From Candidatus Dormiibacterota bacterium (GTDB lineage: Bacteria > Chloroflexota > Dormibacteria > Aeolococcales > Aeolococcaceae): a stretch of DNA of 64,000 nucleotides. The stretch spans positions 2,430-66,429 of the forward strand of contig CAVVVH010000008.1 of NCBI GenBank assembly GCA_963751755.1, given 5' to 3'. Each line of letters begins with the position of its first letter. Position 1 is the stretch's first letter. The notes below the pieces were generated by a model, which saw nothing but the letters and a program-made list of their open reading frames with translations, was not told where the DNA came from and searched no databases. Below are positions 32,682 to 54,734 of the stretch, one piece after another. A program made the translations under genes and the position numbers.

Positions 32682-33384
<703 letters not shown>

Positions 33385-33431: not shown

Positions 33432-33754
33432 TCAGGCGATGCGGCGGCGCATGTCCTCGAAGGCGACGCAGCTGGTCGGCACCCTCGCGGCTGGCGCATG
33501 TACGCCTCCTGCACGCCGAAGATCGCCTCGATGAGCTCGGCGGGGTTCACACCCGGTCGGGCGATGACACCGCGCCGGCGCAGCGCGATGAGCACACGGC
33601 TGGGAACGGCGCCACCGCGGAGGTTCACCTCCTCGAGCTGGGTGAGCAGGCCGTCGAGCTCGCACAGCACATCGCGGCGCGACAGCCGTCTCTCCTCCTC
33701 CTCCTCCGCCCAGGTCAGCTGATTGAGCACGCGGTTGCGGACGAAGGTTGCCAT
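33432..33754 (-). CDS. hypothetical small protein, frameshift near C-terminus
   Basis: MATFVRNRVLNQLTWAEEEEERRLSRRDVLCELDGLLTQLEEVNLRGGAVPSRVLIALRRRGVIARPG... No family assigned. Confidence 0.3.
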
Positions 33755-33894
33755 CGCAGGATCCCTCGGGAAGCGCGTCCACTCGGGGGGTGGGAGTGAT
33801 GTGGAGAAGAACGATCCGAGCGGGTGGGCGATCCTGGAGCGGCATGGTAGCTGTTGCGGACAGCTTTGACCAGAGGTTTGTGGGTTTGCGCCGG

Positions 33895-34697: not shown

Positions 34698-34701
<4 letters not shown>
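33895..34701 (-). CDS. lipB: octanoyltransferase LipB, frameshifted
   Basis: GTG start overlapping the lipA stop (GTGA). [18 protein letters not shown]...[15 protein letters not shown]; [37 protein letters not shown]. Confidence 0.6.
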
Positions 34702-37359
<2,658 letters not shown>

Positions 37360-37393
37360 TGTCACAAGCGCTCTCAGCGCGCCACCAGCGCCG

Positions 37394-39357
37394 TCAGGAA
37401 CGCGCCTGCCACGCGAACGCGAGCGGCGACGACACAGTGAGGTCAAGCGCCGGCTCGACCGTGGACCAGGACTGCACGTTGTCCTGGTAGACGGCGGTCG
37501 CGCTGTTGAAGGCGGCAAAGCTGTCGCCGCCGCGGGGTGGGCAGCGGCGCATGCCGCTCACCACGCCGGTCGCCGCGAAGCTGTTCGGCCCCTCCACCAC
37601 GGCGCCGGCGAGGACCGGGGGAGAGCCGTCGCGCGAGCCGACCAGGTTGGTCACCTGGTGCTGCATGCAGTCGGGGAACGTGCGTGCCGTCGCCGACGAT
37701 GAGCGAGGTGCCCCACGCGTTGGCGCCGAGGATGTCGTCGAGCTGCCGCGTCGCGAAGGCGGCGTACGTCTGCCGGCCTGTCGAGCGCTGCGTACTCGGC
37801 GGCGGTGACCACCAGCCCTGCGCCGTGGCTGGTGGTGTCGAACGCGCTCCAGGGAAAGCCGAAGCCGAACGGGTCGGCCGCCGCCGTGGACCTGGCGCCG
37901 TCGAGCTGCTTGCGCAGGTCCGACGACCAGCTGGGCGCGCGTCACCTCGAGGCCGGCGGTGGGCGCGGCCTCCAGCGCGCGCGCCAGGTCGTAGTGCGCG
38001 ACGGCGCTGTCGTCGTAGAGGTTGAGCGTGTCGACGGCGTCGTTGGGTCCCGTGATGTACGCGTGTGCCCAGTGCGCGGCCTCGCGCAGGTACGCCCCCG
38101 CGTCGCGGTGCGGGACACCGGGCGGCACCGGCCCCGCGGCGAGTGCCTTGTAGAGCTCCGTCGCGCCCCACTCGAGGTCGTCGCGCCACTCGGTCTCCGG
38201 GTAGAAGTCGAAGGCGATGGCCGTCTGCAGCCGGCCGGGGTGCGTGTTGGCCAGGTCGAAGATGTGCTCGGCGTTGATGAGGCACCGCCTGGCCTGCGCA
38301 GGCTCGGTCACGCGCTCGAGCTGGTAGCACAGCGCGAAGTCGGCCGCCAGCCGCCCCGCCAGGTTGGGGCTGATCAACGACCCGGGCGGCCCGGCCCGGA
38401 AGACGGGACGATCGCGGATGTACCGCGTCGCCGGGTCGGATCCACCGTAGGCGTCGTCGGCCTGCGGGAGTCGCCAGATGTCGTGGTCGCCGACGATCTT
38501 GCTGTTGCCGTTGCCGATGCCCACCTCGAAGTACAGCGTCCTGGTCGCGTCGTCCCACATCCTGGTGAGGAAGTCGAGGCCGAATGCCGCCTCGGCGGTG
38601 AGGTTCGCGGTCGGCGAGCCGGGCGCCGAGCTGGCCCGGGAAGTCGCGGACGCCTGTCTCCATCATCGCCACCACGTAGCTGTCGGTCTCGACGAACTTC
38701 AGGTAGTCGCCCGCGTCCCACCACGCGCCGGAGGCGTCGACGCGTTTGCCGAGCGGCTTGAGGTCGCCGACAAGCCCGTCGTTGGAGTCCAGCGTGGGGA
38801 TGAGGTACGTCATCGCGTTGGCGTCGTTGAGGTGCGCGGGCTGCGAGCGCAGCGCCGACGGGATGAAGTTGGCGCCGTCACGCTCGTTCTGGAAGAACGA
38901 CAGCGAGTTGGCCATCGCGCGCGCATACAGCGTCCGCGCGGTGTCGATGGGAAACGCGGGTGAGCGGGCGCTGTCGGGACCCTGGACCACGATCCTGTAC
39001 GTGCCGCGACGCGCCAGCGCGTCGAAGGTGAGCGCGTACACGTGCGGGTACGACGCGCTCCAGCTGCCCCTCGTCGTCGGTGACAGCGCCGCGGAACACC
39101 GCGTCTCCCGCCGTGTCGACGACGGCGAAGGTCGCACCCGTCTCCGACCGCGGCGCCATCAGGTAGGCCCGCTTGGTCCCGTCGAGCCGGTATCCCAGCT
39201 GGTCGACGCGCAGCACCGCCGCCCCGGGCGCGGAGGCGGCGGCCGGCTGCTGGCCGGCAGCCACCAGCGGCAGCAGCAGCCCGGCCGCCACCAGCACAGC
39301 CAGCGACCGCCGGCGCAACCCCGCCCGTGCGTTCAACCGCCATGCGGCACCCCACAC
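37394..39357 (-). CDS. secreted glycoside hydrolase family 9 (endoglucanase-like; possibly exo-glucosaminidase) with N-terminal Ig-like domain, frameshifted
   Basis: Signal peptide. SGAWWDAGDYLKFVETDSYVVAMM; GH9 C-terminal block HCMQHQVTNLVGSRDGSPPVLAGAVVEGPN...AFNSATAVYQDN. Confidence 0.6.
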
Positions 39358-39432
39358 CCCACTGGTCGATCAGTAGAATAGGAAACCTACCTGACTATTA
39401 CGTCCACCGTCAAGGCCTGGAGGTCCTCGCCG

Positions 39433-40133
39433 TTGACCACGCTGGTGGTCTCGCCCCACCTCGACGACGCGGTGCTCAGCGCCGGCCTCTTCCTGCTCAC
39501 CGAGCCGGGCGCGGTCGTCGCCACCGTGATGGCCGGGCACCCGGGTCCCGGCGTCCTGTCCGACTGGGATCGTGCCTGCGGCTTCGTGGACGGCGACGAC
39601 CCGGTGGCGCGCCGGCGCGACGAGGACCGCGCCGCGCTGGCCATCCTCGGCGCCCGGCCGCATCACCTGGAGTTCCTCGATCAGCCGTACCGTGCCGGGC
39701 GCGCGGCGGACGAGGGAGGGTCGGTCGACGCCGGGCGACGTCGCCGGCCGGCTGGTCGAGCTGGTGCGCGACGTGCAACCAGTGCGGCTCCTCATCCCGC
39801 TCGGCCTGCTCCACCCCGACCACGTCCTGACCCACCGGGCGGGCGTCCTCCTGCGCCGCCGCACGCAGGTCGAGACATGGGCGTACCAGGACCTTCCCTA
39901 CGCCTTTGCCCGCCCCGACCTGGTGGTGACGCAGCTGGACGGCCTCGAGCGCCAGGGGGTGCACGCCACCCCCGTGCCCGCCGCCGATCCGCCGAGCCGC
40001 CGAGCGCAAGCTCGCGGCGATCGCCTGCTACGCGTCCCAGGTGGACGCGGTCAGGGACGACCTCGGCCACGACGCCTGGGAGCGCACCCTGGGGCCGGGG
40101 AGCGAACGCCTCTGGCGACTGACGGACGTGTAG
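39433..40133 (+). CDS. PIG-L/LmbE family N-acetylglucosaminyl deacetylase, frameshifted
   Basis: MTTLVVSPHLDDAVLSAG...; LHPDHVLTHRAG; C-terminal LAAIACYASQVDAV in a third frame. Confidence 0.6.
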
Positions 40134-40153
40134 CCGGGCGGCGCCACCGGCCG

Positions 40154-41173
40154 TCAGTAGGTCGACGTGACCTTGCTGAGACCCGCCGGGCAGTCGGGGT
40201 CGAGACCGCGGCGCGCCGCGAGGGTCGCAGCGACCTGCTGCCCGCGCACCGACATCACGATCGGCAGCAGAGCTTCGGCGATGCCGCCGGGCACGGTGAT
40301 GTCGGCGTCGCCCGCATCCGAGACCGTGTGCACCACGGCACCGCGACCGCGCAGCTGCCGCACCACCTCATCGATGTCCGCACGCGTGCTCGCGTTGCTC
40401 ATCGCCAGCACGGGGTGGCCGGCTGCGACTGCGGCGATGGGGCCATGGCGCAGGTCGGCGGACGACATCCCCTCCGCCAGCAGCCCCGACGTCTCCCGGA
40501 CCTTGAGCGCCGTCTCCAGGGCCGCGACGAGCAGCAGCCCGCGCGCGGTGACCAGCACCCTGTCACAGCCGTCGAGCTGAGCGGCGACCGCGTCCACGCC
40601 GCCGCCGTCGCCAAGGACGTCCTCGACCTGGGCCGGCAGCATCCGCAGCGCGCCCTCCGGCCACAGCGGCGGGCCGAGAGCCTCGGCCACCAGCGCCACC
40701 GCCAGGAGGGTGGCCGTGAAGCTCTTGGTCGCGGGGACGGCGGCCTCGGGTCCGGCGCCGATGTCGATGGCCACGTCCGCCGCGTCGCCCAGTGGGCTGC
40801 CCGCGCCGTTGACGATGGCCACCGTGCGCGCCCCCTGCCGGCGCATCGCCTCGAGCACCCGGACGATCTCGGGGGTCTGTCCCGACTGGCTGATGCCGAC
40901 GGCGAGGTAGCCGGAGTAGTCGACGGCGCTGCCGTGCACGGTGTGGATGCTGGGGGCGGCCAGCCCGGCGGGACGTGCGGCGGCCATCTCGAGCAGGTAG
41001 CGTCCGTACACCGCGGCGTGGTCGGACGACCCGCGCGCCACCAGGCTGATGCCCGCCAGGTGTCGCGGGAGCACCGCCCTGACCGCGCCGGTGATCTCCG
41101 CCCGCCGCCGCGCCAGGGCCGCCAGCACCGCGGGCTGCTCGGCCATCTCGGCGGCGGTGACCTCGCCCCTCAT
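40154..41173 (-). CDS. SIS-domain sugar-phosphate isomerase/deaminase (AgaS/GlmS-C-like)
   Basis: Intact 339 aa, two SIS repeats (ISLVARGSSDHAAVYG; VGISQSGQTPEIV). ATGA/GTGA coupling with the upstream gene. Confidence 0.7.
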   Translation of the reverse strand: MRGEVTAAEMAEQPAVLAALARRRAEITGAVRAVLPRHLAGISLVARGSSDHAAVYGRYLLEMAAARPAGLAAPSIHTVHGSAVDYSGYLAVGISQSGQTPEIVRVLEAMRRQGARTVAIVNGAGSPLGDAADVAIDIGAGPEAAVPATKSFTATLLAVALVAEALGPPLWPEGALRMLPAQVEDVLGDGGGVDAVAAQLDGCDRVLVTARGLLLVAALETALKVRETSGLLAEGMSSADLRHGPIAAVAAGHPVLAMSNASTRADIDEVVRQLRGRGAVVHTVSDAGDADITVPGGIAEALLPIVMSVRGQQVAATLAARRGLDPDCPAGLSKVTSTY

Positions 41174-42189
41174 GGCGGGCTGTCGCGCCGGCCGGCCGGC
41201 CGCTCAGCCGCGAGCTCGGCGCGGGCGCGCACCAGCGCCGCCTCGGTCGCGCCGGCGCGCCGGAGCACGGCGACCGCAGCACCGGCGACGGGCCGGCCGC
41301 GCCATACCACCAGCTCGGCTCGCGGGGCGGCCGCGGCAACCCCCGCGCGCACCCGGTCGACCAGCCGTGCCGGGGCGGCGGCGACGACGGATCCTCCGAT
41401 GACCACCGTGACCGCGTCCCGTTCCTGGCGCGTCCGGCGCAGCGCCGCCACCGCGAAGCCCACCACCTCGTCCGCCTGGCGGTCCACGATGGCGAGCGCC
41501 GGCGCGTCGCCGGCGTTCGCCGCGACGAAGACCAGCGGCGCCAGCTCATCCAGCCGCTGTTCGGCGAGCTGTCCTCGGTGGATGGCGAGAGCGACGCGCA
41601 GCGCGCTGGGCTGGCCGAAGTGGCCGGCGATCATCGCTCTCAGCGCGGTGTCGTCGGCGCGTCCCTCCTCGCTTCGCACCGCCGCGCCGAGCGCGGCCAG
41701 GCCGATACCGCCGCCGCCTCCCCAGTCCCCGGTGATCGACCCCAGCGAACCGAAGTGCGCCTCGGCGCCGGACTCGGCGCGGCCCACCCCGTTGACGCCG
41801 GCGCCCACCACCACGGCCGCGCCGAACCCGCTGGGGCTGCCCGCCCAGAGGAGGGCGAGGGTGTCGTTGCCCACCAGCGCGCTGGCGACCCAGCCGCGCG
41901 AGCAGATCGCTTCCTCCAGGCCCGACACCTCGTCGGGCTGGTCGGCGCCGGCGAGGAGGAACGCCCCGGCCGGCAACGTGGGACGGGGCGCCACCGGGTC
42001 CTCGGCCGCCTGTCGCCACGCCTCCTCGATGAGGGCTTCGATGACGTCCAGGGCGCCGTCGACGCCCGTTGCGTGCGGGTTGGACCCCGGTCCGCGCACC
42101 GTGGCGGCGACGCCGCCGTCGGTCGTCACCAGCGCCACGTCCGTCTTCGAGTTGCCCCCGTCCACGGCCACCAGGAGGTCACGTGTCAT
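41170..42189 (-). CDS. BadF/BadG/BcrA/BcrD-type ATPase (N-acetylglucosamine kinase-like)
   Basis: MTRDLLVAVDGGNSKTDVALVTTDG...GAGVNGVG...VIGGSV. Intact about 340 aa. Start overlaps the GH4 stop (ATGA). Confidence 0.65.
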   Translation of the reverse strand: MTRDLLVAVDGGNSKTDVALVTTDGGVAATVRGPGSNPHATGVDGALDVIEALIEEAWRQAAEDPVAPRPTLPAGAFLLAGADQPDEVSGLEEAICSRGWVASALVGNDTLALLWAGSPSGFGAAVVVGAGVNGVGRAESGAEAHFGSLGSITGDWGGGGGIGLAALGAAVRSEEGRADDTALRAMIAGHFGQPSALRVALAIHRGQLAEQRLDELAPLVFVAANAGDAPALAIVDRQADEVVGFAVAALRRTRQERDAVTVVIGGSVVAAAPARLVDRVRAGVAAAAPRAELVVWRGRPVAGAAVAVLRRAGATEAALVRARAELAAERPAGRRDSPP

Positions 42190-43449
42190 CGCCACATGGC
42201 CGGCAGCAGGTCGCGGTGAGCGTGCAGCAGGTCGGCGAGGAGAGCCTCGGCCCTGCCCCACTGGGCGATCAGTGGGTGGGCGAGCAGCGCGCGGAGAGCC
42301 ACGTCCCTGGCGCCGGTGCGCGCGGCCTCGACGGTGAGGCGCTCGTACGCCGCGACCTGGCGCATGAGCGCGAGCTCGGGCTCGTCGGGGGGCGGCACGG
42401 CGACCGCCGCCGGGCCGTTGCGGCCGATCATGGCCGGAACCTCGACGACGGCGTCGTCCGGCAGGGCTGCGATGGTTCCGTTGTTGCGCATGTCGACCAC
42501 CTGTACATCGCCGCCGTCCTGGGTGAGCGAGGTCAGCAGGTTCAGCGCGGCGTCGCTGTAATGCGCGCCGCCGCGGCTGCTGAGCAGGTCGGGGCTGCGC
42601 TCCAGGGCGGGGTCGGCGTACAGCGCGAGCAGCCTCTCCTCCACCTCGCGCACCTGCTCGGCGCGCGACGGGGAGGTGCGCAGCTCCCGCACCACCTCGT
42701 CGTGCATGTAGAAGTAGCGCAGGTAGTACGAGGGCACCGCGTGCAGGAGGCGCAGCAGGGGCGACGGGCAGCTCGACGTGGTCCGCGAGCTCCTGCGCGC
42801 GCGCAGCCAGCAGCTCGGGGAGCAGATCCTCGCCGTCGACGACCACCGACCGGATCCAGGTGAGGTGGTTGAGCCCGGCGTGGCCCAGGCCGACGCGATC
42901 GGGTGGCACACCGAGCCACTCCGCGAAGAGCCTCTGGAACCCGATGGCGACGTTGCACAGCCCCACCGCGCGGTGACCGGCGTCGAGCAGGGCGCGGGTC
43001 ACGATGCCGACGGGGTTGGTGAAGTCGATGATCCACGCCTCGGGACCGGCGCGCCGGCGCACCGTCTCGGCGATGTCGAGGATGACCGGGACGGTGCGCA
43101 GCGCCTTGGAGAAACCGCCGGCGCCGGTGGTCTCCTGGCCGACGCACCCGCAGGCGAGAGGGATGGTCTCGTCGAGCTGGCGTGCATCCTGGCCGCCGAC
43201 GCGGATCTGCAGGAGCACGGCCGCGGCCGAGTCGACGGCGCGGTCGAGGTCGGTGGTCGCGATGACCGTGCCGTCCCACCCCTGGGCGCGCAGGATCCGG
43301 GTGGCTGCGGAGCCGACCACGTCCAGGCGCGCGGGGTCGGTGTCATGCAGTGCCAGCTCGGAGATCGGCAGGGTGTCGCGGAGGCGCACCACGCCCTCCA
43401 CGAGCTCGGGCGTGTACGTGCTCCCCGCGCCGACGACGGTGACCTTCAC
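42186..43449 (-). CDS. glycoside hydrolase family 4 (6-phospho-beta-glucosidase / ChbF-like), one internal frameshift near 42900
   Basis: MKVTVVGAGSTYTPELVEGV (NAD-binding N-terminus); CNVAIGFQ; C-terminal half in ORF 42186..42911 (YYLRYFYMHDEVV...). Confidence 0.65.
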
Positions 43450-44390
43450 GCGGTCACCTCGTCGCGGACGGCGTCGACGGCGAGAGCGAGCGCGCCGCGC
43501 AGGGGCGCGTCACGAAGGAACCTGGCGGGCACGACGTCCGGCGGGAAAGGCACCGCCGCTCTGACGCGCCGCGCCACGGCGCCGACGACTCGCTCAGCGC
43601 TGCCCATCAGCCCGCCGCCGAGCGAGATGCGCTCCGGGTCCAGCAGGATGGCGCTGTTGGCGATGTGCAGCGAGAGGGTGTCGAGCACCTCATCCACCTG
43701 CTTCCGCACGCGGGGGTCGTCGTGCGCGAACGCCTGCGCGGTGGTCACCTCCTCACCGAGCAGCGCGCTCGCTCGCTCGGCGATGGCGCGGCCGCCGACG
43801 AGCTCTTCGAGCGGGGCGCGCCCGGCGGCCACGCCCGGGGAGGTTGGACTGCCGTCCAGCAGGTACGCGATCTCCCCCGCGGCGCCGTGCGCGCCCTCCA
43901 GCACGCGACCCGTGGTGACGATGGCGGCGGCGACGCCGGTGCCGACGTTGACGTACAGCGCGGGGTCGCAGTCGCGCAGGCTTCCCCACCGGGTCTCCGC
44001 CATCGCCGCCGCTTTGACGTCGTTGCCCATCGCCAGGCAGGGCAGCCCGCTGGTCCGCTCGAAGTACGTGCGAAGGTTGACGTCGCCCAGCCCCGGGAGG
44101 TTGGGGGTCAGCACCATGGTCTCGGCGCGCACCACGCCCGGCGCCACCAGCGCAAAGCCGCGGCACGGGCCCGCGCTCTCCAGCTGATCCGTCTCCGCCA
44201 CCAGCGCCAGCGCGCACTCCGCGGCACGCTCCAACGCCTGGTCCGCACCCCTGTCGACGGCTGTCGCGATGCGGTCGCTGCGCAGCACGCGCCCCTGTCG
44301 GTCGGCGGTGGCGAGCGCGATCTTGGTGCCGCCGATGTCGAGCCCGAGGATGTATCCAGTCATGCGCGCAGCCCGGCGGGTTGCCGCCAA
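43446..44390 (-). CDS. ROK family sugar kinase
   Basis: Intact 314 aa. YILGLDIGGTKIALA; ROK-type GNDVKAAAMAE...; no N-terminal HTH, so kinase-type rather than regulator. Confidence 0.7.
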   Translation of the reverse strand: MAATRRAARMTGYILGLDIGGTKIALATADRQGRVLRSDRIATAVDRGADQALERAAECALALVAETDQLESAGPCRGFALVAPGVVRAETMVLTPNLPGLGDVNLRTYFERTSGLPCLAMGNDVKAAAMAETRWGSLRDCDPALYVNVGTGVAAAIVTTGRVLEGAHGAAGEIAYLLDGSPTSPGVAAGRAPLEELVGGRAIAERASALLGEEVTTAQAFAHDDPRVRKQVDEVLDTLSLHIANSAILLDPERISLGGGLMGSAERVVGAVARRVRAAVPFPPDVVPARFLRDAPLRGALALAVDAVRDEVTA

Positions 44391-45442
44391 CCGTCGTCGT
44401 GCGCCGGCCGTCCGGTGCCCTGTGGGTCAGCGAGGTGACACGCCGCCTGGTGGCCGGCGCCGACGTGACGAAGCCGGGGCGTCTCCACCGAGCACCGGGC
44501 GACCGCGATGGGACAGCGGAACCTGAACCGGCAGCCCGGGCCGGGGTCGATGACGCGCGGTGGCTCGCCGACGTCCGACGCGGACGCCAGGCCCAGCGGC
44601 GCGCGGGGATCGGGCACCGCGGACAGGAGCAGCTGGGTGTAGGGGTGCCGCGGTCCTTCCAACACCTGGCCGGCGGGGCCCTGCTCCACGACGTGACCCG
44701 CGTACAACACCACGATGGAGTCGGCGACGTAGCGCGCGCTGGCGATGTCGTGCGTGATGTACAGGCAGGAGACCCGCTCACGCGCGCGCAGGTCGAGCAT
44801 GAGGTTGAGGATCCCGGCCCGGATGGACACGTCGAGCATGGACACGGGCTCGTCCGCGAGGATCAGCTTGGGGCGCAACGCCAGCGCCTGTGCGAACCCC
44901 ACCCGCTGCCGCTGGCCGCCGCTCATCTCATAGGGGAATTTGCGCAGGAATGCCGCTGCAGGGAGCAGGCCGACCGCGCCGAACACCCTTTCCGCCTCGG
45001 CGCGCCGCTCGTCGCGGCTCAGCTCGCGCCGGTGCAGCTTCATCGCCCTGTGCACGGCGTGGCCGACGCGGAAGGCGGGGTTCAGCGAGCTGAAGGGATC
45101 CTGGAAGACCATCGGCACCTTGCCGCGGTACGCCAGGGTTTCCGCGCGCGACCTCCGCGCCTTCAGCGATCGACCCTCGAAGAGGATGTCCCCGGCGGTC
45201 GGCCGGTGCACCATGGCGAGCAGGCGCGCGACGGTGCTCTTGCCGCTACCGCTCTCGCCGACCAGGGCGACGATCTCCTGGGCGCCGATGGTGAGGTCCA
45301 CCTCGTCGAGCGCGTGCAGGGTGCGCCGCGACAGCAGCCCTCCCACCCGGAAGTGCTTGGTGAGGCCGACGGTCTGCACCAGCGGCACGGCCTGCTCGGC
45401 GCCGGGCGCGGCCGTCTCAACCATGGGCGTGCTCGCGCGCAT
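44360..45442 (-). CDS. oligopeptide/dipeptide-type ABC transporter ATP-binding protein (DppF/OppF-like)
   Basis: Walker A GESGSGKST. Intact 360 aa with C-terminal oligopeptide-ABC extension. Confidence 0.8.
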   Translation of the reverse strand: MRASTPMVETAAPGAEQAVPLVQTVGLTKHFRVGGLLSRRTLHALDEVDLTIGAQEIVALVGESGSGKSTVARLLAMVHRPTAGDILFEGRSLKARRSRAETLAYRGKVPMVFQDPFSSLNPAFRVGHAVHRAMKLHRRELSRDERRAEAERVFGAVGLLPAAAFLRKFPYEMSGGQRQRVGFAQALALRPKLILADEPVSMLDVSIRAGILNLMLDLRARERVSCLYITHDIASARYVADSIVVLYAGHVVEQGPAGQVLEGPRHPYTQLLLSAVPDPRAPLGLASASDVGEPPRVIDPGPGCRFRFRCPIAVARCSVETPRLRHVGAGHQAACHLADPQGTGRPAHDDGWRQPAGLRA

Positions 45443-46403
45443 CGCCGGCGTCCGCGTAGAGCAGGCAACGCACCCGCTCGGTGTCGACGTCGTAGAGGTC
45501 GGGCTCCACGATGTGGCACTGCGGCATCACCACCGGGCAGCGCGGATGGAAGCGACACCCGGCCGGCGGCCGGGCGAGGTCGGGCGGGCTGCCGGGGATG
45601 CCCGTGAGGTGCACCCGCTCGCCGCGGATGGACGGGAACGCATCCAGCAATCCCTTGCTGTACGGGTGCAGGGGCGCGTCGAACACCTTGCGCGTCCCGC
45701 CCAGCTCGGCGACCTGGCCGGCGTACATCACCGCCAGGCGATCCGAGAAGTGGCTCACCAGTGACATGTCGTGCGTGACGAAGATGATCGCGAAGCCCAG
45801 CAGGCGCTGCAGATCCTTGATCTGCATCATCAGCGACCGTTGCGCGACCACGTCGAGGGCCGAGGTCGGCTCGTCCATGAGGATGAGCTCGGGCGTCAGC
45901 AGCAACGCCATCGCGATCATGGCGCGCTGCCGCATCCCGCCGGAGAGCTGGTGAGGGTAGCTCTTGAGGTGGACCGCGTCGATGCCGACCAGGTGCAGCA
46001 CCTCGGCGGCGCGCTCGCGGATGGCGGCATCCGACGTCTGCCCGTGCGCCCGCATCGCGTCGGCGAACTGGGCCTCGATGCTCTTCATCGGGTTGAGCGC
46101 GTTCATCGCGCTCTGCATGACCACCGAGTAGTCGCGCCAGCGCACGCGTCGGAGCTCCTCCTGTGACAGCCGTGTCATCTCCTGGCCCTTGAAGTGGATG
46201 GTGCCGCCGGTCACCTCCGCCGGCGGCGCGAGCAGCTGGGCGATGGCGAACAGCAACGTCGACTTGCCGCACCCGGACTCCCCCACGATCGCCACGAACT
46301 CACCGGCGGCGACGTCCAGGTCCACGCGGTCGACGGCGCGGACATCGCCCGAGTCGGTGACGTAGGCGACCGAGAGGTCGCGCACCTCAAGCAGGCTGGG
46401 CAC
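45417..46403 (-). CDS. oligopeptide/dipeptide-type ABC transporter ATP-binding protein (DppD/OppD-like)
   Basis: Walker A GESGCGKST, signature LSGGMRQR. Intact 328 aa. Confidence 0.8.
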   Translation of the reverse strand: MPSLLEVRDLSVAYVTDSGDVRAVDRVDLDVAAGEFVAIVGESGCGKSTLLFAIAQLLAPPAEVTGGTIHFKGQEMTRLSQEELRRVRWRDYSVVMQSAMNALNPMKSIEAQFADAMRAHGQTSDAAIRERAAEVLHLVGIDAVHLKSYPHQLSGGMRQRAMIAMALLLTPELILMDEPTSALDVVAQRSLMMQIKDLQRLLGFAIIFVTHDMSLVSHFSDRLAVMYAGQVAELGGTRKVFDAPLHPYSKGLLDAFPSIRGERVHLTGIPGSPPDLARPPAGCRFHPRCPVVMPQCHIVEPDLYDVDTERVRCLLYADAGDAREHAHG

Positions 46404-47324
46404 GCCGTCTCCTGACCGGGCGGAGCGCGGGGTTGCCGATCTCGTCGAACGCGTAGTTGAGCAGCGCGAAGGCGGTTCCCAGCAGGGCGACGGCGATGCC
46501 CGGAGCGAGCGCCCACAACGGGTTGCCGGCGGCCAGGGCCTCGTTCTGCTGCGCGTCGTGCAGCATGGTTCCCCAGGTGATCTGGTCGGTGGTGCCGAGG
46601 CCGAGGTACTGGAGTCCCGCGGCCGTGGCGACGACGTACACGGAGATGCTGAGGAAGCTCGCGACGATCAGCGAGATCATCGTGGGCAGGATCTCGACGA
46701 CGATGATGTAGAGGCGGCGCTCCCCGCGCACACGCGCGGCTTCGAGGAAGTCACGGGAGCGCAGGGAGAGCGCCTGCGCGCGGACCTGGCGCGCGCCGAA
46801 GGCCCAGCTCGTGACCACGAGCGCGCCGATGATTGCGATGGTGCCCGCACCGGTCAGGTAGGCCGCGAGGATGATCAGCAGCGGCAGGGTCGGGATGATC
46901 AGGAACACGTCCGTCAGCAGTGAGAGCGCGCGGTCCGCCCAGCCGCCGACGTAGCCCGCGGTGACCCCGATGAGGATCGAGACCGCGGTGGAGAACAGCC
47001 CGACGACGACGGTGATGATCAGCGTGAGCCGCGTGCCCCAGATCAGCTGGGCGAAGACGTCCTGGCCCACCTGCGTGGTGCCGAGGAGGTGTGCGGCTGA
47101 CGGCGCCGGCCTGCTGGTCGTAGATGGCCGCCGAGGGATCGTCATGGGCGATCAGGCCGGGGAAGGCCGCCACCAGGGCGATGACGAGCAGCAGCACCAC
47201 GCCTGCCGTCGCCTTGCGGTTGTGCAGCACCGCGCGCACCAGTCGCCCGGCGACGTCATTGCGCGGGTCGTTGGCTGACCACGTCAGCGGTCCCGGCCTC
47301 CGGTGCGATCGCAGGGGTCGCCAT
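46387..47324 (-). CDS. ABC transporter permease (DppC/OppC-like), one frameshift near 47270
   Basis: ATG at 47324 just after the DppB-like stop. BPD-transport fold in ORF 46387..47145. Confidence 0.65.
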
Positions 47325-47333
47325 CGCGGTGCC

Positions 47334-48308
47334 TCACGCCTCCCGCGTTCGCGGGTCGAGCACGGCGGTGGCCAGGTCGGCCACCAGGACACACACCAGG
47401 ACGGCGACCGTGTAGAAGAGGAACAGGGCCTCCTGCAGCCCCAGGTCGTGCAGCTCCGTGCCGGTCACGAACAGGTAGCCGACGCCGGGGTACGAGAACG
47501 TGTACTCGACGAGGATGGCGCCGCCCAGCACGTAGCCCATCTGCATGGCGAACCCGGTGAGGTTGGGAAGGATGGCGTTGCGCGCCGAGTAGTCCAGCAT
47601 GATCCGCCACGGCCGGAGCCCCTTGGCGCGGGCCATGCGCACGTAGTCCTCGGCCAGCGTGGTGACCATGTTGTTGCGCATCGTGTAGATCCACGTGCCC
47701 GCCAGCGAGAGCACCAGCGTGGCCCCGGGAAGGATGGCGTGGCGGATGACGTCCCAGATGAAGGACAGCGACAGCTCAGGGGTGGCGTCGATGCTGTAGT
47801 TCGACTGGATCGGGAACCAGTTGAGCGTCACCGCCAGCAGGTACAGGAGCAGCAGCGCGATGAAGAACACCGGGAAGGCGGTGATGATGAACAGCAACGG
47901 CGGGAAGACGCTGTCGAGGCGGCCGCCGCGCCGCCAGGCGCTCACCACCCCCAGCGACGTTCCGAGCACGAAGGAGATGACGGTGCTGACCCCCACCAGC
48001 CCGATCGTCCACGGCAGGCTCTGCAGGATCACCGTGGTGACCGGGGTGCGCGTGGCCGCTGTGAGACCGAACTGACCGGTGAAGCAGTTGCCCAGGTACT
48101 GGAAGTAGCTGAGCAGGACGTTCTGGTGATCGTTGACACCGAACTCGACCTGCAGCGCGTGGAGGATCGCCGGGTTCACGTTCCTGAACTGCGCGTAGAC
48201 CGCGGTCGCCTCGTTCCCCGGCATCAGCCGGGGGAGCAGGAAGTTGATGGTCAGCGCCGCCCACAGCGTCACCAGGAAGAGGCCCAGCCGCTTGGCGATG
48301 AATCTCAC
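47334..48308 (-). CDS. ABC transporter permease (DppB/OppB-like)
   Basis: Intact 324 aa, MRFIAKRLGLFLVTLWAALTINFLLPRLMPGN. Confidence 0.8.
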   Translation of the reverse strand: MRFIAKRLGLFLVTLWAALTINFLLPRLMPGNEATAVYAQFRNVNPAILHALQVEFGVNDHQNVLLSYFQYLGNCFTGQFGLTAATRTPVTTVILQSLPWTIGLVGVSTVISFVLGTSLGVVSAWRRGGRLDSVFPPLLFIITAFPVFFIALLLLYLLAVTLNWFPIQSNYSIDATPELSLSFIWDVIRHAILPGATLVLSLAGTWIYTMRNNMVTTLAEDYVRMARAKGLRPWRIMLDYSARNAILPNLTGFAMQMGYVLGGAILVEYTFSYPGVGYLFVTGTELHDLGLQEALFLFYTVAVLVCVLVADLATAVLDPRTREA

Positions 48309-48348
48309 GGCTGGACCCTATGTCCTGGCGTGCCCGGTGCGCCCGCGA

Positions 48349-50043
48349 CTACCCGAGAGGGTAGAGATGGGTCAGCACCACCCCGTTGTCTGGCAGAGCC
48401 CACACCGGTGGCTGCGCGTACGGGTCGGACGGCGTCGGCCAGCCGCCGATGTTCGAGGTGTCGTACTGGTACCAGTCGACGCCCTCGGTGACGGGCACGA
48501 AGGGGATCTGGCTGGCCATGACCGACGAGATCTGGTGGATGATCTGCACCTGCTGTGACGGGCTCGCCGAGGCGTACTGGTTGAAGAGGGCGTCCGTGCT
48601 CGGCGAGTTGTACCGCGAGTAGTTGGTGGAGCCGATGTTGCCGCTGAAGAGCATCTGGCGCAACTCGTAGTACGGGGCTGGACCGCCGGTCTCCTCACCG
48701 TAGGCGAGCGTGAACTTGCCGGCCTGGAGGTTGGGGACGTACACGCTGCCGTTGTCCTCGTCGACGACCTTCACGTCGATGCCTGCCGCCTGCAGCTCCT
48801 GCTGGATCACCTGCAGGGACGAGTCCCAGTCGGTGTAGCCGCTGATGGTCTGGATGGTGAAGGAGAGCCGCTGCCCGCTCGAGCTCTGGAAGATCCCGTC
48901 GGATCCCTTGGTGTACCCCGCGGCCTGGAGGGTCTGCGCGGCCTTGGCTGGGCTGAAGGACGTGTTGTCGATCGACTTGTCGTACCAGGCCTGGTAGGTG
49001 GGCAGGATGATGCCGGTCTGGTTGGCCGCGTTCTGGTAGCCGTCCTCGCCGCGCTGAGCCACGTTGTGCCGGTCGATGGCCAGCGCGATGGCCTGGCGCA
49101 CCGGCAGCTGGCTGAGCACAGGGTCGGCGGTGTTCAGGAAGAGGCCGACGTTGGCCACCGGCGGGAACCAGTAGTGGCGGTGAGCGCTGTCCGCGGCGAC
49201 GTAGTACTGCTGGATGTTGGGGATGTACTGCGCGCCCCACTGGGCTCCGCCCTGGTGCAGCAGCAGGTTGGCGGGCGTGTTGCTCAGGAACGCCGGGTAG
49301 TCGACCTCCTGGATCTGCGGCACCGGGTGGCCCGGCTGGCTCTGCCAGTACTTGCCGTTGCGCGTGTACTTGATGTTGTTCGCCGAGCAGCTCGACACCA
49401 CGTAGGGGCCGGTGCCCACCGGCTGGCTGTCCGCGTTGGCGTCGAGGTTGGCCTGGTCCAGCGTCTGCCAGATGTGCTGAGGGATGATCGGGGTCTGGTC
49501 CGCGACATAGAAGAAGTACGTCTGCGCCGGCCCGGAGAAGGTGACCACCACCTGGTTGGTGCCCTGGGCCGCCACGTTGGTCACCGGCCCACCGTCCGAC
49601 TGCCAGAGGGCGTTGACGTCGAGCTTGGAGTCGACCTTCATCGCGTTGAACGTGTAGACCACGTCCTGGGCGCTGAACGGCGTGCCGTCAGTCCACTGCA
49701 CGCCGTTGCGGATGGTGAACGTCAGCGTCGTGTACGCGCTGTCCCACGTGTATGCCGTGGCCAGCCAGGGGGTCACCTTGTTGCTGCCGTCCGGGTTGGT
49801 GGCCAGCGCGTCGACGAAGTACAGCGGCTCGTACGTGAACCCGATCGACGTGCCGCTCACACCCGAGTTGAACGGGTTGAACTGGCAGCTCCACGTGCCA
49901 CCACTCTCGTTGTCGATGACCAGCTTGCCGCCGATCTTCCCGCTGTTCTGCTGCACGGCGCTTGCCCCGCCGCTCGGGGACCCGCATGCGGTGGCCAGCA
50001 ACCCTGCGGCGATCATGAATGAGAACGCCCTCGACCGTTTCAT
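48349..50043 (-). CDS. ABC transporter substrate-binding lipoprotein, SBP family 5 (DppA/OppA-like)
   Basis: Start taken at the internal ATG giving lipoprotein signal MKRSRAFSFMIAAGLLATACGS. Intact. Confidence 0.75.
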   Translation of the reverse strand: MKRSRAFSFMIAAGLLATACGSPSGGASAVQQNSGKIGGKLVIDNESGGTWSCQFNPFNSGVSGTSIGFTYEPLYFVDALATNPDGSNKVTPWLATAYTWDSAYTTLTFTIRNGVQWTDGTPFSAQDVVYTFNAMKVDSKLDVNALWQSDGGPVTNVAAQGTNQVVVTFSGPAQTYFFYVADQTPIIPQHIWQTLDQANLDANADSQPVGTGPYVVSSCSANNIKYTRNGKYWQSQPGHPVPQIQEVDYPAFLSNTPANLLLHQGGAQWGAQYIPNIQQYYVAADSAHRHYWFPPVANVGLFLNTADPVLSQLPVRQAIALAIDRHNVAQRGEDGYQNAANQTGIILPTYQAWYDKSIDNTSFSPAKAAQTLQAAGYTKGSDGIFQSSSGQRLSFTIQTISGYTDWDSSLQVIQQELQAAGIDVKVVDEDNGSVYVPNLQAGKFTLAYGEETGGPAPYYELRQMLFSGNIGSTNYSRYNSPSTDALFNQYASASPSQQVQIIHQISSVMASQIPFVPVTEGVDWYQYDTSNIGGWPTPSDPYAQPPVWALPDNGVVLTHLYPLG

Positions 50044-50214
50044 CACAGGTCTCCCCTTGCTAACCCCGGTGCCCGGGCGCTGCCCGCGCACCTCGTCATC
50101 GGCGTCGCCGGTCACCCTCGGGTGAGGACGGTATAATGCTCAGGAAAGTTACCTGAAAGAATCCGCATAGGTCAAGCGCCGGGCTCACCGGCCGCAGGGC
50201 GCGAGGAGGTAGAG

Positions 50215-51405
50215 GTGGCCGAGGGCGCACAACCCAGCCTGCTGCGGGCGATCAACCTGCGCGCGACGTTCGACGTCGTCCGGGCGCGCGGGCCGGTCGG
50301 GGCGCCCCACGTCGTCCGTGAGGCGCGGCTGTCGCGGCCCACCGTCGGCGAGGTCATCAACCAGCTCCTCGACCTCGGGCTGATCCAGAAGGTCGGCCTC
50401 AGCCGCGGCCAGCGCGGGCCGAGCGCGCAGATGTACGGCGTCAACCCGCGCGCCGGCTGGGTGCTGAGCGTGGACGTCGGACGCGAGTGGCTGCGCGCGG
50501 CACTCAGCGACCTCGCGGGCGCGGTGGTTGCCCAGAGCGCCGAGCGCACGCGCACCTCTGCGAAGGCGGTGATCGCGCAGATCAGAGGCGCCGCGGACGA
50601 TCTCGCCGCCGACGCCGGCATCACTCGGACGCAGCTCACCCAGGTGGTGGTCGGCACCCCTGGCGTCATCCTGCCGGGCGACGACCACCTCTCGCTCGCA
50701 CCGCAGCTGCCGGGCTGGGAACGGCCGCGAGTGCTCACTGCGATTCGCGATCAGCTGGAGGCGCCGGTGGTCTTCGAGAACGACGTCAAGCTGTCCGCAG
50801 TCGGAGAGCACGTCGACGGCATCGCCAAGGGCACCGACGACTTCGTGCTCATCTCGCTCGGCACCGGCATCGGCATGGCGGCCTTCGTGGAGGGAGCGCT
50901 GCGCCGCGGCGCCTCCGGGCTCGCCGGGGAGATCGGCTACCTGCCACTGAAGGTGGAGGGTGGCCGGCCGCACGCGCAGGGGGCGGTGTGGGGCGCAGGG
51001 GCGTTCGAGCGCCTGGTCAGCTCGTCGGGGATCGCGGCCCTGGCCCAGCGCAACGGTCTTCCCGTCGACGCCGGCGCGGCCGGGATCTTCAGCGCGGCGC
51101 GCACCGGTGACGCGCGCGCCCGCCGCGTGGTCGAACGCGTGGCCACCCGGCTCGCGTACGCGGTCGCCAGCGTGGTCGCGGTTCTCGACCCGGAGCTTGT
51201 CGTGCTCGGCGGCGGCGTCGGTGCGGGCGGCGGGGACATGCTGCTGCCGCATCTGCGGTCGGCGATGGCGTCGGTGTCGCCGTTCTCGCCGAGACTGGAG
51301 GTGTCCACGTTGGGCGCTGACGCGGTCATCAGAGGCGCACAGGCGACCGGTCTGCGCATGGCGCTCGACCGGATCTTCGGGGCTGAGGCGTCAGTGGAGG
51401 TCTGA
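50215..51405 (+). CDS. ROK family transcriptional regulator (NagC/XylR-like)
   Basis: N-terminal HTH (LLRAINLRATFDVVRARGPVGAPHVVREARLSRPTVGEVINQLLDLGLIQK) followed by a ROK kinase-like domain. Intact 396 aa. Divergent from the ABC operon. Confidence 0.7.
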   Translation: MAEGAQPSLLRAINLRATFDVVRARGPVGAPHVVREARLSRPTVGEVINQLLDLGLIQKVGLSRGQRGPSAQMYGVNPRAGWVLSVDVGREWLRAALSDLAGAVVAQSAERTRTSAKAVIAQIRGAADDLAADAGITRTQLTQVVVGTPGVILPGDDHLSLAPQLPGWERPRVLTAIRDQLEAPVVFENDVKLSAVGEHVDGIAKGTDDFVLISLGTGIGMAAFVEGALRRGASGLAGEIGYLPLKVEGGRPHAQGAVWGAGAFERLVSSSGIAALAQRNGLPVDAGAAGIFSAARTGDARARRVVERVATRLAYAVASVVAVLDPELVVLGGGVGAGGGDMLLPHLRSAMASVSPFSPRLEVSTLGADAVIRGAQATGLRMALDRIFGAEASVEV

Positions 51406-52170: not shown

Positions 52171-53738
52171 CTACAGAAGCGCCCCGCTCTCGTCGATGGT
52201 CTCGAGCAGTTCCTTCACCCTCTTGACGAACCGGGTCGCCTGGAGGCCGTCGTTGATGCGGTGGTCGAAGCTCAGCCCGATGTTCATCATCGGGCTGATC
52301 GCGATGGCGTCGTTGACGACGACAGCGCGCTTGACCACCGCGTCCATGGCGAGGATGCCGGCCTGCGGCTGGTTGATGATCGCCTGCGTCAGCACCGTGC
52401 CGAGCGCGCCGGTGTTGTTCAGCGTGAAGGTTCCACCCTGGATCTCGTCGAGCTTGAGCTTGTTGCTGCGGGCGCGATCGCCGAGGTCCTGCATGATCGC
52501 CGCCAGCCCCGCGATGCTGAGCCGGTCGGCGTTGCGGATCACCGGCACGATGAGGCTTCCTCCAGCGCCACCGCGATGCCGAGGTTGAGGTCGCGACGAA
52601 CGATGATGCCCTCGTCACTCCACGAGGCGTTCAGCGTGGGGTGCTGACGGAGCGCGTCGCAGACAGCGCGCGCCACGAAGGGCAGGTAGGTCAGCTTGAC
52701 GCCGTAGCGCTGCTCGAACTCGGCACGACGAGCCGTGCGCAGCTTGGCCACGCGTGACATGTCGACCTCCATGGTCAGCCACGCGTGCGGTGCCGTGTGG
52801 CGGCTGCGCACCATGTGCTCGGCGATGGCCCGGCGCGTCGGGGTCAACGGGATGAGCTCGTCGCCATCGGCACGCTGCGGTTGCGGCTGGGCGGCGGGTT
52901 GCTGTCGGGCAGCGACCTGCGGCTCTGGCTGCTGCGGCGCAGGTGCGGCGGGTGCCTGCGGCGCGGGTGCGGCCGCCTGCGGCGCGGGTGCGGCCGCCTG
53001 CGGCGCGGGCGCGGACGCCTGCTGCGTAGGTGCGGGCTGCTGCTGCGGTTGTGCCGGCGCGCTGGGGCGCTGGCCACCACCGGCGTCACGACGCTGCACG
53101 TAGTCGAGAACGTCCTTCTTGGAGATCCGTCCCTCGAGCCCGGTTCCCTGCACCTGCCCGAGGTCCACCTCGTGCTCGCGCACCAGCATCCGCACCGCCG
53201 GGGTGAGGTGGTACTGCACCGCGCCCGCGCTGTTGCCGTTGCCATTCGTCGACTGCGCGGGCGCGGGCTGCGCGCTCGCGGACTGAGCCTGCGCCGCCGG
53301 CGCCTGCTGCGCACCCGCCGCCACCGCCTGCTGTTCCTGCGGCTGGCGCTCCTCCTGCTGCACCACCTCGGGCTGGCCCGGCTGCTCGGCGGCCGGCTGC
53401 TCCGGCGTCTGCTGCGACTGTTCGGCGACGCTCACCGTGTCGCTCTGCACTGGCGCCGCGTCGTCACCCTGGTGCCACGCCGAGTTGGCCTGGCCCTGCT
53501 CCACCGTCTCGATGGTGCAGATGGGCTGTCCGACCGCGATCACGTCGCCCTCCTTGGCGATGTGCTCGCCCATGCTGCCTTCGGCCGGGGATGGGATCTC
53601 GGCGTTCACCTTGTCGGTGACCACCTCGGCGATCGACTCGTACTTGGCGACCAGCTCGCCCGGCTGCTTGAGCCAGCGGGCGATGGTGCCCTCGGTGACG
53701 CTCTCACCGAGCTGCGGCATGTTGACTGTCATGGCCAT
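52171..53738 (-). CDS. 2-oxoacid dehydrogenase E2 component (dihydrolipoamide acyltransferase), frameshift near 52545
   Basis: Lipoyl domain MPQLGESVTEGTIARWLK...VVTDKVNAEIPSP. Ala/Pro/Gln linker. E3-binding domain. Catalytic C-terminus DHRINDGLQATRFVKRVKELLE (in ORF 52171..52548). Confidence 0.7.
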
Positions 53739-53750
53739 GGTGTGATGTCC

Positions 53751-54734
53751 TCAGTATGCGGCCAGCTTGCGCAACGCAGCCTCTAGCTTGTCAGGTGTGA
53801 CCAGGTAGAACTCCTCGAGCGCGTGGGCGAACGGCATCGCCGGGATCTCCGGGCCGCCGATGCGCATCACCGGCGCGTCGAGGTATTCGAAGCAGTCCTC
53901 GGCGACGATCGCCGCCACCTCGGACGAGATGCTGACCGCGAGGTTCGGCTCCTGCGCCACCATCACCTTGCCGCATTTGCGCGCGCTGGTGATGATCGCC
54001 TCGCGGTCGAGCGGGCGGAGGGTGCGCAGGTCGACCACCTCGCACTCGAACCCGTCGGCAGCGAGCCGATCGGCCGCCTCGAGCGCGTGTGCACCATGAT
54101 CCCGTACGTGAAGATGGCGATGTCGCGACCCTCGCGCACCACCGCGGCCTTGCCGATCGGAACCGTGTACTCCTCCTCCGGCACCTCGCCCTTGACCGAC
54201 CGGTAGGCGCGCTTGTGCTCGAAGAAGAGCACCGGGTCGGGGTCGCGCATCGCGCTGATCAGCAGGCCCTTGGCGTCGTACGGCGTGCTCGGCACCACCA
54301 CCTTGAGACCGGGTACACCGCAGAACATCGCCTCGATGCGACTGCGAGTGGTACAGCGCGCCGTGCACGCCCCCGCCGAAGGGCGCGCGAAGCACCATCG
54401 GCACGCTCCATGCGTTGTTGCTGCGGTAGCGCATCTTGGCGGCCTCGCTGACGATCTGGTCGACCGCGGGCATGATGAAGTCCTGGAACTGGATCTCCGC
54501 GATGGGGCGCAGCCCGTACAGCGCGGCGCCGATGCACACGCCGACGATGCACGACTCCGCCAGCGGCGAGTCCATGACGCGCCACTCGCCGAACTCGGCC
54601 TGCAGGCCCTCCGTGGTGCCGAAGACGCCGCCCTTGGCGCCGACGTCCTCGCCGAGGATCATCACCCGCTCGTCGCGGCGCATCTCCTCGCGCATGCCAT
54701 CGCGGATCGCCTCGAGGTAGGTCTTGCTGGCCAT
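53751..54734 (-). CDS. 2-oxoacid dehydrogenase E1 component beta subunit, two internal frameshifts
   Basis: [32 protein letters not shown]...; middle [33 protein letters not shown] is in another frame. Confidence 0.65.

Follow-up and report, generated by a model that had tools for sequence, protein, structure and literature searches.

Organization of the locus

We analyzed a 64,000-nucleotide stretch of contig CAVVVH010000008.1 (hereafter, the window) from a Candidatus Dormiibacterota bacterium, in which positions 37394-51405 carry what is probably a utilization locus for amino-sugar oligosaccharides, comprising an oligopeptide-type ATP-binding cassette (ABC) importer, a family 4 glycoside hydrolase (GH4), two sugar kinases, and their regulator. 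The G+C content of the window is approximately 71%, so that spurious open reading frames (ORFs) are plentiful; genes were called by third-position GC content (GC3) and frame tracking, followed by family searches against Pfam and NCBIfam. By this procedure, the locus of approximately 14 kb contains 12 genes, 10 on the minus strand and 2 on the plus strand, and Pfam supported the family of every one of the 12 predicted proteins.

Nine of the minus-strand genes are arranged in a row, in the order that a sequence-only reading of this DNA had given them and with which Pfam and NCBIfam agree. The first encodes a family 5 substrate-binding lipoprotein (SBP; 48349-50043, Pfam SBP_bac_5), followed by the permeases DppB (47334-48308, NCBIfam) and DppC (46387 to approximately 47324, located by frame analysis and by tblastn with the permeases of a related locus, L083) and the ATPases DppD (45417-46403) and DppF (44360-45442), both identified with NCBIfam. 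Downstream lie a ROK-family sugar kinase (43446-44363, Pfam ROK), the GH4 glycosidase (42186-43449, with both Pfam GH4 domains), a BadF/BcrAD-family sugar kinase (41170-42189, Pfam BcrAD_BadFG), and, as the last gene of the operon, a double-SIS phosphosugar isomerase/deaminase (40154-41173, two Pfam SIS domains). Divergent from the operon on the plus strand, as also recognized earlier, is a ROK-family transcription regulator of the NagC type (50215-51405, Pfam ROK). The remaining two genes encode a PIG-L/LmbE-family deacetylase (39433-40133, plus strand, Pfam) and a predicted exported GH9 protein with a CelD_N Ig-like domain (37394-39343, minus strand, Pfam). These two had been described as preceding the operon; both in fact sit past its 3' end, with the deacetylase gene convergent with the SIS gene and divergent from the GH9 gene.

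Stop and start codons overlap at the GH4 start (GTGA, 43449/43446), the BadF start (ATGA, 42189/42186), and the SIS start (ATGA, 41173/41170), and the most likely start of the ROK kinase is the ATG at 44363, which overlaps the DppF stop as a further ATGA. DppF, the ROK kinase, GH4, BadF, and SIS are joined as one unit by these overlaps. The first three had been listed in the sequence-only reading, whereas its kinase start at 44390 and its overlap at the DppB/DppC junction (47324/47334), which is a 9-nt spacer, did not hold up. A consensus promoter/terminator scan found no convincing terminator inside the operon, and an Rfam scan of 36.5-52.5 kb returned no match at E ≤ 1, including no riboswitch and no glmS ribozyme. 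No phosphotransferase system (PTS) gene was found by Pfam and NCBIfam in 37.4-51.4 kb, where every ORF is accounted for. A 7-nt inverted repeat, CTGACGG...CCGTCAG at 40119-40159, spans the 20-nt gap between the convergent stop codons of the deacetylase and SIS genes; its arms reach into both coding ends, it has no T-run, and it might act as a bidirectional terminator stem for both genes.

Regulator, operators, and recurrence of the gene set

The regulator consists of an N-terminal DNA-binding region and a ROK sensor domain (Pfam ROK, E = 3e-42; NCBIfam NagC, 96 bits over residues 9-353), and it is 84% and 62% identical to its counterparts in the related loci L001 and L083, respectively. The Cys-rich zinc motif CxCGxxGC is usual in ROK kinases and repressors; both the ROK kinase and the ROK regulator of the window lack it, and the regulator has no cysteines at all.

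In Streptomyces, the ROK repressor CsnR recognizes a box, AGGAAANTTTCCT, in which positions 5 and 9 weigh most (PMC6097792); this box sits upstream of chitosanase genes and of the repressor's own cluster, and the glucosamine (GlcN) dimer (GlcN)2 is the best in vitro effector (PMC6097792, PMC5635096). When the whole window was scanned with this Streptomyces consensus at up to two mismatches, exactly two matches were obtained, compared to 0.10 expected, and none of 100 shuffled sequences gave two. Operator A, AGGAAAGTTACCT (50142-50154, one mismatch), lies in the spacer between the regulator and SBP genes, and operator B, AGGAAACCTACCT (39380-39392, two mismatches), lies in the spacer between the GH9 and deacetylase genes; both retain A5 and T9. 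The interval 50044-50214, previously proposed as the place for a NagC/ROK operator, thus holds a near-perfect CsnR box, with a second box ahead of the GH9 and deacetylase genes. Both operators are identical in L001 despite diverged surrounding spacers. A second Dormibacteraeota lineage (L082 and L083) also has a CsnR-like box in its SBP/GH9 spacer, and the actinobacterial and Chloroflexia loci L008, L010-L012, and L024 have variant boxes in the spacer that separates the regulator from the first gene.

Promoter-like elements could be read at both operators. At operator A (50132-50175), a plus-strand TATAAT at 50132-50137 may serve the regulator gene, and a minus-strand TTGACC (50175-50170), separated by 18 nt from TAACTT (50151-50146), may serve the operon; at operator B (39374-39413), a plus-strand TAGAAT at 39374-39379 may serve the deacetylase gene, and a minus-strand TTGACG (39413-39408), again separated by 18 nt from TAGGTT (39389-39384), may serve the GH9 gene. 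The two sites have a common layout, with the plus-strand -10-like hexamer abutting the box and the minus-strand -10 inside it, the latter following the pattern TTGAC(C/G)-18 nt-TA(A/G)(C/G)TT, and the hexamers of both sites are identical or nearly so in L001. Neither operator drew a call in a consensus promoter scan, owing to the weakness of the -10 elements, and an inverted-repeat finder run on the two spacers did not pick up the imperfect operator palindromes. Since the boxes overlap the putative promoters in both divergent spacers, four transcription units, i.e., the operon, the regulator gene, the GH9 gene, and the deacetylase gene, appear to share one predicted repressor.

Relatives of the locus were found by scanning species-representative genomes with the ROK kinase. 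The best of them, L001 from a Candidatus Dormibacteraeota metagenome-assembled genome (MAG), carries all 12 genes in the same order, with window positions 37406-51386 aligning to L001 2914-18121 at approximately 77-80% nucleotide identity; the conserved block thus coincides with the interval delimited in the sequence-only reading. The locus core is also found, rearranged, in at least eight further loci. In L082 and L083, the ABC genes are divergent from the GH9, ROK regulator, GH4, BadF, and SIS genes, and a PIG-L gene is convergent; L010 and L024, from uncultured Actinomycetes and Chloroflexia MAGs, have a ROK regulator next to a ROK kinase, family 5 SBP, DppBCDF, GH4, and BadF; and L081, from the isolate Streptacidiphilus sp. 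MAP12-16, has the SBP-ABC, GH4, and BadF genes, with a GH9 gene carrying carbohydrate-binding modules four genes away. Streptosporangiaceae and Binatia MAGs contain rearranged versions as well, whereas smaller sets are represented by a Nonomuraea sequence from a plasmid collection (ROK regulator, GH4, and BadF only) and an Ilumatobacteraceae MAG (GH4 and BadF only). Because the 12 genes are colinear in L001 and their core recurs rearranged in at least eight loci, their association goes beyond chance, and the recurrence in shuffled order of the set of SBP-ABC, ROK regulator, GH4-BadF, SIS, PIG-L, and GH9 indicates functional coupling.

In L081, neither a CsnR-like box nor an adjacent ROK regulator was found; a motif, AGTAA...TAACTAAC, lies upstream of both its SBP gene and its GH9 gene (approximately 3115-3145 and 14575-14600), which suggests that its ABC-GH4-BadF genes and GH9 gene are co-regulated by a different regulator. 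In L005, from an Acidimicrobiaceae MAG (16500-20900), a GH20-like gene fragment and a SIS gene occupy the place of GH4-BadF after the ROK kinase, SBP, and DppBCDF genes, a hint that this transporter family supplies a hydrolase route as well as a kinase-plus-GH4 route.

Predicted functions of the importer and enzymes

The SBP (Pfam SBP_bac_5, E = 9.4e-64) contains a lipobox-like LLATAC sequence, and in a ranking of scores against PDB structures, rather than a phylogeny, it was placed closest to oligosaccharide binders: the Thermotoga mannoside binder TM1223 came top with 187 bits, followed by the chitooligosaccharide binders VhCBP of Vibrio harveyi (170 bits) and VcCBP of Vibrio cholerae (160 bits), with Thermotoga cellobiose-type binders at 99 bits, NikA at no more than 92 bits, and DppA at approximately 50 bits. 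The permeases have NCBIfam matches of the Opp/Nik/Dpp B type, and the ATPases have full-length matches of the DppF/OppD type (4.9e-88 and 4.6e-85), so the Opp/Dpp (PepT) set of one family 5 SBP, two permeases, and two ATPases is complete in one operon. Because the SBP scores favor oligosaccharide binders over NikA and DppA, with no clustering with peptide binders in this PDB score ranking, they support the assignment of the SBP to a sugar-binding Opp subgroup and of the locus to a sugar rather than a peptide, as the sequence-only reading had proposed for this importer. The label "peptide/nickel ABC transporter" is probably wrong here.

The GH4 protein groups with the NAD+/Mn2+-type 6-phospho-beta-glucosidase (ChbF/BglT/LicH) subgroup. 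Its scores against PDB were 300 bits for the Geobacillus 6-phospho-beta-glucosidases 5C3M/1S6Y and 249 bits for BglT, compared to 176 bits for a 6-phospho-alpha-glucosidase and 65 bits for AglA, in line with the earlier suggestion that this enzyme is of the ChbF type. The motifs GAGSTYTPE, GLCNV, and GLNH align to 5C3M/1S6Y as the NAD-binding segment, the Cys-Asn metal/catalytic pair, and the His ligand, respectively, and the C-N-V motif presumably marks the subgroup. GH4 enzymes of the BglT type need a 6-phospho sugar (PMC10628242).

In every related GH4 locus examined, the GH4 gene is followed at once by a BadF kinase gene, and by their coordinates the two genes share 4 nt in several of these loci, just as they do here. 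The BadF kinase (Pfam, E = 3.7e-19) matches an N-acetylmuramic acid/N-acetylglucosamine (GlcNAc) kinase and human NAGK in PDB. The ROK kinase (Pfam ROK, E = 9.9e-36) has no DNA-binding domain, and its best NCBIfam matches (NanK, allose kinase, glucokinase, and BglK) all fall far below their cutoffs, BglK scoring 67 bits against a cutoff of 550. This kinase travels with the transporter and is also found in L005 and L053 without GH4-BadF in the stretch examined. Its closest actinomycete homologues (41-48% identity), in Sphaerisporangium (L002), Pseudonocardia (L004), Actinomadura (L006), and Virgisporangium (L007), lie beside a ROK regulator and an ABC ATPase of another kind, with no GH4 or family 5 SBP detected in the stretch examined, a context that would fit a monosaccharide role for the ROK kinase.

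The SIS protein appears to be NagB-II-like (of the NagB-II or GlmS C-terminal type) and nearest to glucosamine-6-phosphate (GlcN-6-P) deaminases: its best NCBIfam match was NagB_SO3506 (184 bits, cutoff 430), followed by GlmS isomerase (172 bits) and, weakly, GlmD (61 bits), and it scored 134 bits against the GlcN-6-P deaminase 8EOL in PDB. Fructosamine/Amadori and N-acetylmuramic acid readings of this gene were rejected, as FrlB reached only 29 bits and MurQ approximately 35 bits. The PIG-L protein (Pfam, E = 3.2e-12) has the metal-site motifs SPHLDD and HPDH, a TTG start with GGAGG upstream, and no signal peptide; among solved structures, the GlcNAc-glycoside deacetylases Dbv21/Orf2 come nearest to it. 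The earlier view that the LmbE and SIS genes point to GlcNAc- or GlcN-containing substrates fits both rankings.

The GH9 protein was reconstructed from five tblastn segments in three frames that are 60-68% identical to the intact 656-residue orthologue of L083, and the frame-corrected protein matches Pfam GH9 (E = 7.6e-62) and CelD_N (E = 3.3e-14), with the catalytic motifs DAGDY and EPALD present. It is therefore a bona fide GH9 by Pfam, as had been claimed, although one of a divergent clade. It begins with MAVERTGG..LRRRSLAV.., a sequence similar to the L083 signal peptide MSERSGRRRQRL, and judged by eye the N-terminus looks like an RR-containing signal peptide both in L083 and in the reconstruction. 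Homologues are abundant in Dormibacterota and Chloroflexota, where they are annotated as "endoglucanase," a label that is probably wrong here. An AlphaFold2 model of the clade, built with 15 homologues, had a mean pLDDT (per-residue confidence) of 47.8, too low for fold search or loop inspection.

A predicted chitosan regulon and its alternatives

The combination of ABC import, kinases, and GH4 had been called atypical in the sequence-only reading. It is not, since the Streptomyces csnREFGHK cluster already combines them: it encodes the ROK repressor CsnR, the ABC importer CsnEFG with MsiK, the GH4 protein CsnH, and the "putative oligosaccharide kinase" CsnK in a published design for (GlcN)n that (GlcN)2 induces (PMC6097792, PMC5635096, bioRxiv 10.1101/2023.09.20.558697, PMC6520443), and it is conserved in many actinomycetes (PMC6097792, PMC5635096, bioRxiv 10.1101/2023.09.20.558697). 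As in csn, the window has a ROK repressor at the cluster edge, a AGGAAANTTTCCT-type operator at its own promoter and before a secreted hydrolase gene, and an ABC importer followed by a GH4 hydrolase and then a sugar kinase, here GH4-BadF with an ATGA overlap. This likeness is at the level of families and operator, and either BadF or the ROK kinase may correspond to CsnK. The two differ in that the csn importer is of the CUT1 type and energized by MsiK, whereas the window importer is of the Dpp/Opp (PepT) type with its own two ATPases; in the regulator gene, which is first in the operon in csn but divergent in the window; in the co-regulated secreted enzyme, which is GH9 here, while csn boxes are reported for GH46, GH2, GH5, and GH75; and in the host, probably Dormibacterota here and Actinomycetota for csn. 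The window further adds a second kinase (ROK plus BadF), a NagB-II-like deaminase, and a PIG-L protein to the regulon. By analogy, the locus would be a transporter-swapped and extended csnR-K-like regulon rather than a new kind of system.

Three other systems share parts of this design. The Vibrio cholerae VC0611-VC0620 cluster likewise combines a Dpp/Opp-family importer with a related SBP, a GH9, and a hexosamine kinase (PMC6096475, PMC6520443), but it uses a phosphorylase and GH20 and lacks both a GH4 and ROK/CsnR control. The Vibrio chitin-operon GH9, encoded beside the Dpp-type importer, shows a preference for (GlcN)2 relative to cellobiose and no activity on (GlcNAc)2 (PMC6096475); enzymes of this VC0615/PBPRA0520 type are exo-acting, whereas the window GH9 has a putative signal peptide and no detectable likeness to them beyond family. 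In Escherichia coli chbBCARFG, a deacetylase and a GH4 6-phospho-beta-glycosidase also act on a GlcN-containing phospho-disaccharide, ChbG deacetylating chitobiose-6-phosphate to yield the ChbF substrate, mono-deacetylated chitobiose-6-phosphate (PMC9402603). There, however, uptake and phosphorylation are by PTS rather than by an ABC importer and ATP-dependent kinases, ChbG belongs to the YdjC type of deacetylases rather than to PIG-L, and the regulator is the AraC-type ChbR rather than a ROK protein. The chitin pathway of the archaeon Thermococcus kodakarensis (Dac, GlmA, and GlmD) reportedly comprises a PIG-L deacetylase, a SIS-type GlcN-6-P deaminase, a Dpp/Opp-type importer, and a GlcN kinase, all shared with the window, and cleaves unphosphorylated sugar with a GH35-like exo-glucosaminidase, whereas the window would cleave by kinase plus GH4. 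Our literature search for Dormibacterota together with chitin, chitosan, or glucosamine returned general chitin/chitosan papers, none naming Dormibacterota.

On the basis of the SBP, GH4, SIS, and PIG-L rankings, the two CsnR boxes, and the conserved gene set, we consider it reasonably probable that the locus is a CsnR-type regulon for beta-1,4-linked glucosamine oligosaccharides, i.e., chitosan or partly acetylated chito-oligosaccharides. In such a pathway, the exported GH9 would attack chitosan-type polymer or oligomers outside the cell, and the SBP with DppBCDF would import short GlcN-rich oligomers. A kinase, most likely BadF because it is always coupled to GH4, would then phosphorylate O6 of the non-reducing sugar, and GH4, judging from its subgroup, would split the 6-phospho-oligosaccharide into GlcN-6-P and GlcN or GlcNAc. 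The freed monomer would be phosphorylated by the ROK kinase, the cytoplasmic PIG-L enzyme may strip residual N-acetyl groups, comparable to ChbG ahead of ChbF in E. coli, and the NagB-II-like SIS protein would convert GlcN-6-P to fructose-6-phosphate and ammonia. The divergent ROK repressor would hold the two AGGAAA-NN-TACCT operators until released by an imported oligomer. The roles of the kinases could be reversed, or hydrolysis could precede phosphorylation.

More tentatively, and as a proposal that may well prove wrong, GH4 and BadF may form a two-enzyme module in which BadF is an ATP-dependent oligosaccharide 6-kinase that feeds a 6-phospho-beta-glucosaminidase; together with an exported chitosan-active GH9 of a new type and a PepT-class (GlcN)n importer, this module would constitute a PTS-independent route for chitosan (fungal necromass) in Dormibacterota, Chloroflexota, and some Actinomycetota under a cross-phylum CsnR-type operator. 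If the chitosan assignment is true, the CsnR/chitosan regulon reaches from Streptomyces into uncultured soil phyla with another transporter class, the CsnH/CsnK step gains a testable model of kinase first and GH4 6-phospho-glycosidase second, a large GH9 clade annotated as "endoglucanase" becomes a candidate for chitosan activity, and Dormibacterota acquire an amino-sugar polymer niche. The GH4-BadF module, the uncharacterized GH9 clade, and the cross-phylum operator are the most useful leads.

Several points weigh against the chitosan assignment, for which the substrate is one that we infer. GH9 enzymes are mostly cellulases, and the one in the window scores no more than approximately 52 bits against any solved GH9, even with a profile; in PDB searches (single-sequence E ≤ 1e-5, profile E ≤ 1e-3), the Vibrio exo-glucosaminidases 6GDT, 5DGR, and 3H7L did not match it. 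The best solved relative of the SBP is a mannoside binder, no protein of the locus reaches an NCBIfam equivalog cutoff, and the PIG-L gene near the L082/L083 locus is not orthologous to that of the window. None of the four genes encoding GH4, DppC, the deacetylase, and GH9 is an intact ORF in the present assembly. A second Streptomyces ROK regulator also uses AGG-N7-CCT (bioRxiv 10.1101/2023.09.20.558697), and likeness of the operator is no proof of the same effector. The tie to CsnR, CsnH, and CsnK is one of families and operator; moreover, the functions of CsnH and CsnK are themselves predictions, and the csn literature leaves the order of phosphorylation and hydrolysis undecided.

Instead of chitosan, the substrate might be chitin-derived N,N'-diacetylchitobiose, (GlcNAc)2, which would be imported, mono-deacetylated by PIG-L in the manner of Thermococcus Dac or E. 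coli ChbG, phosphorylated, split by GH4, and deaminated by the SIS protein. The scores of 160-170 bits between the SBP and the Vibrio chitooligosaccharide binders fit this, as do the apparently co-regulated PIG-L deacetylase and the GH20-like gene that replaces GH4-BadF in L005, and ChbF acts on monoacetylchitobiose-6-phosphate (PMC9402603). We nevertheless regard it as viable but unlikely: neither a GH18/GH19 chitinase nor NagA is encoded in the locus, its operator matches a chitosan (CsnR) box and not a chitin (DasR) element, the two regulons being reported as separate in Streptomyces (PMC6097792), the GH9 enzymes of Vibrio leave (GlcNAc)2 uncleaved (PMC6096475), and PIG-L is accessory and non-orthologous across related loci. 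A cellobiose or beta-glucan pathway, with a secreted GH9 endoglucanase, import, a BglK-like ROK kinase, and a GH4 6-phospho-beta-glucosidase, would agree with the source records, where GH9 and GH4 are annotated as endoglucanase and 6-phospho-beta-glucosidase, with the nearest solved GH4s, with the Thermotoga cellobiose and mannoside binders related to the SBP, and with BglK among the NCBIfam matches of the ROK kinase. Yet BglK stands at 67 bits against 550, and the NagB-II-like deaminase, PIG-L, the GlcNAc-kinase-like BadF, and the CsnR-type operators would go unexplained, which makes this pathway improbable. The sequence-only title of a chito-/gluco-oligosaccharide locus accordingly stands in its amino-sugar half, while its cellobiose half, which leaves deaminase, deacetylase, and operator without explanation, is the weaker alternative. 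That an ordinary peptide/nickel Dpp/Opp importer merely lies beside unrelated sugar genes is suggested by the best NCBIfam names of the SBP and permeases, nickel/oligopeptide, all far below cutoffs; with sugar binders ahead by approximately 70-140 bits, ATGA/GTGA coupling running from the ATPase into the kinase and GH4 genes, and the SBP-ABC and GH4-BadF linkage recurring across many taxa, we consider this extremely improbable.

It must also be asked if the pathway is active at all. The families and places of the genes given in the sequence-only reading were right, but frameshifts in four of them had been overlooked: GH4 has one frame change near 42765, DppC has one or two (approximately 47100 and 47260), the deacetylase gene has two, and the GH9 gene has at least five. 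These approximately 9-11 breaks in a 14-kb stretch, of which the GH9 and deacetylase genes account for at least seven, are what a decaying relic with real frameshifts and an inactive pathway would display. However, the flanking housekeeping genes for lipoyl synthase, LipB, aldehyde dehydrogenase, and RpiA are likewise split, the shifted segments are free of in-frame stops, retain a high GC3, and are 55-68% identical to intact orthologues, and in L001 the breaks fall in other genes (SBP and DppF). The frame-corrected GH4 (420 residues) can be aligned with intact homologues from end to end (100% coverage), with identities reaching 85%. Furthermore, the long-read, long-contig assembly of L082 has a fused BadF-SIS call (675 residues), a shortened ATPase, and a truncated tRNA synthetase, whereas the same genes are intact in L083, which encodes an identical GH4; the pair directly illustrates how gene breakage in Dormibacteraeota can depend on the assembly. 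Given the split housekeeping genes, the GC3 and identity of the segments, the different breaks in L001, and the L082/L083 pair, the frameshifts are most likely assembly indel errors and not marks of pseudogenes, so that the organism probably has a working system and a relic is quite improbable, although the denser breaks in the GH9 and deacetylase genes may reflect real decay of those two. For the placement of indels by the window-L001 alignment, it is to be noted that both assemblies contain indels and share only approximately 80% identity. Frame switching occurs commonly throughout the window; it is dense at 20000-39500, including lipB (33895-34931), lipA (35150-35650), and the aldehyde dehydrogenase gene (35725-37328), and 40-57 kb is much cleaner, which suggests that the quality of the consensus varies along the window, as it would in a long-read assembly prone to indels, rather than that genes are decaying.

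The flanks of L001 have nothing in common with those of the window; since the block is conserved in L001 between unrelated flanks, its 14 kb behave as a unit. In the window, the locus is flanked by lipB/lipA (33895-35730) on one side and by genes for the E2, fused E1, and E3 components of a 2-oxoacid dehydrogenase complex (52539-57163) on the other. These lipoate-synthesis and 2-oxoacid dehydrogenase genes are functionally related to each other, and the 14-kb block looks as if it had been transposed or inserted as a unit.

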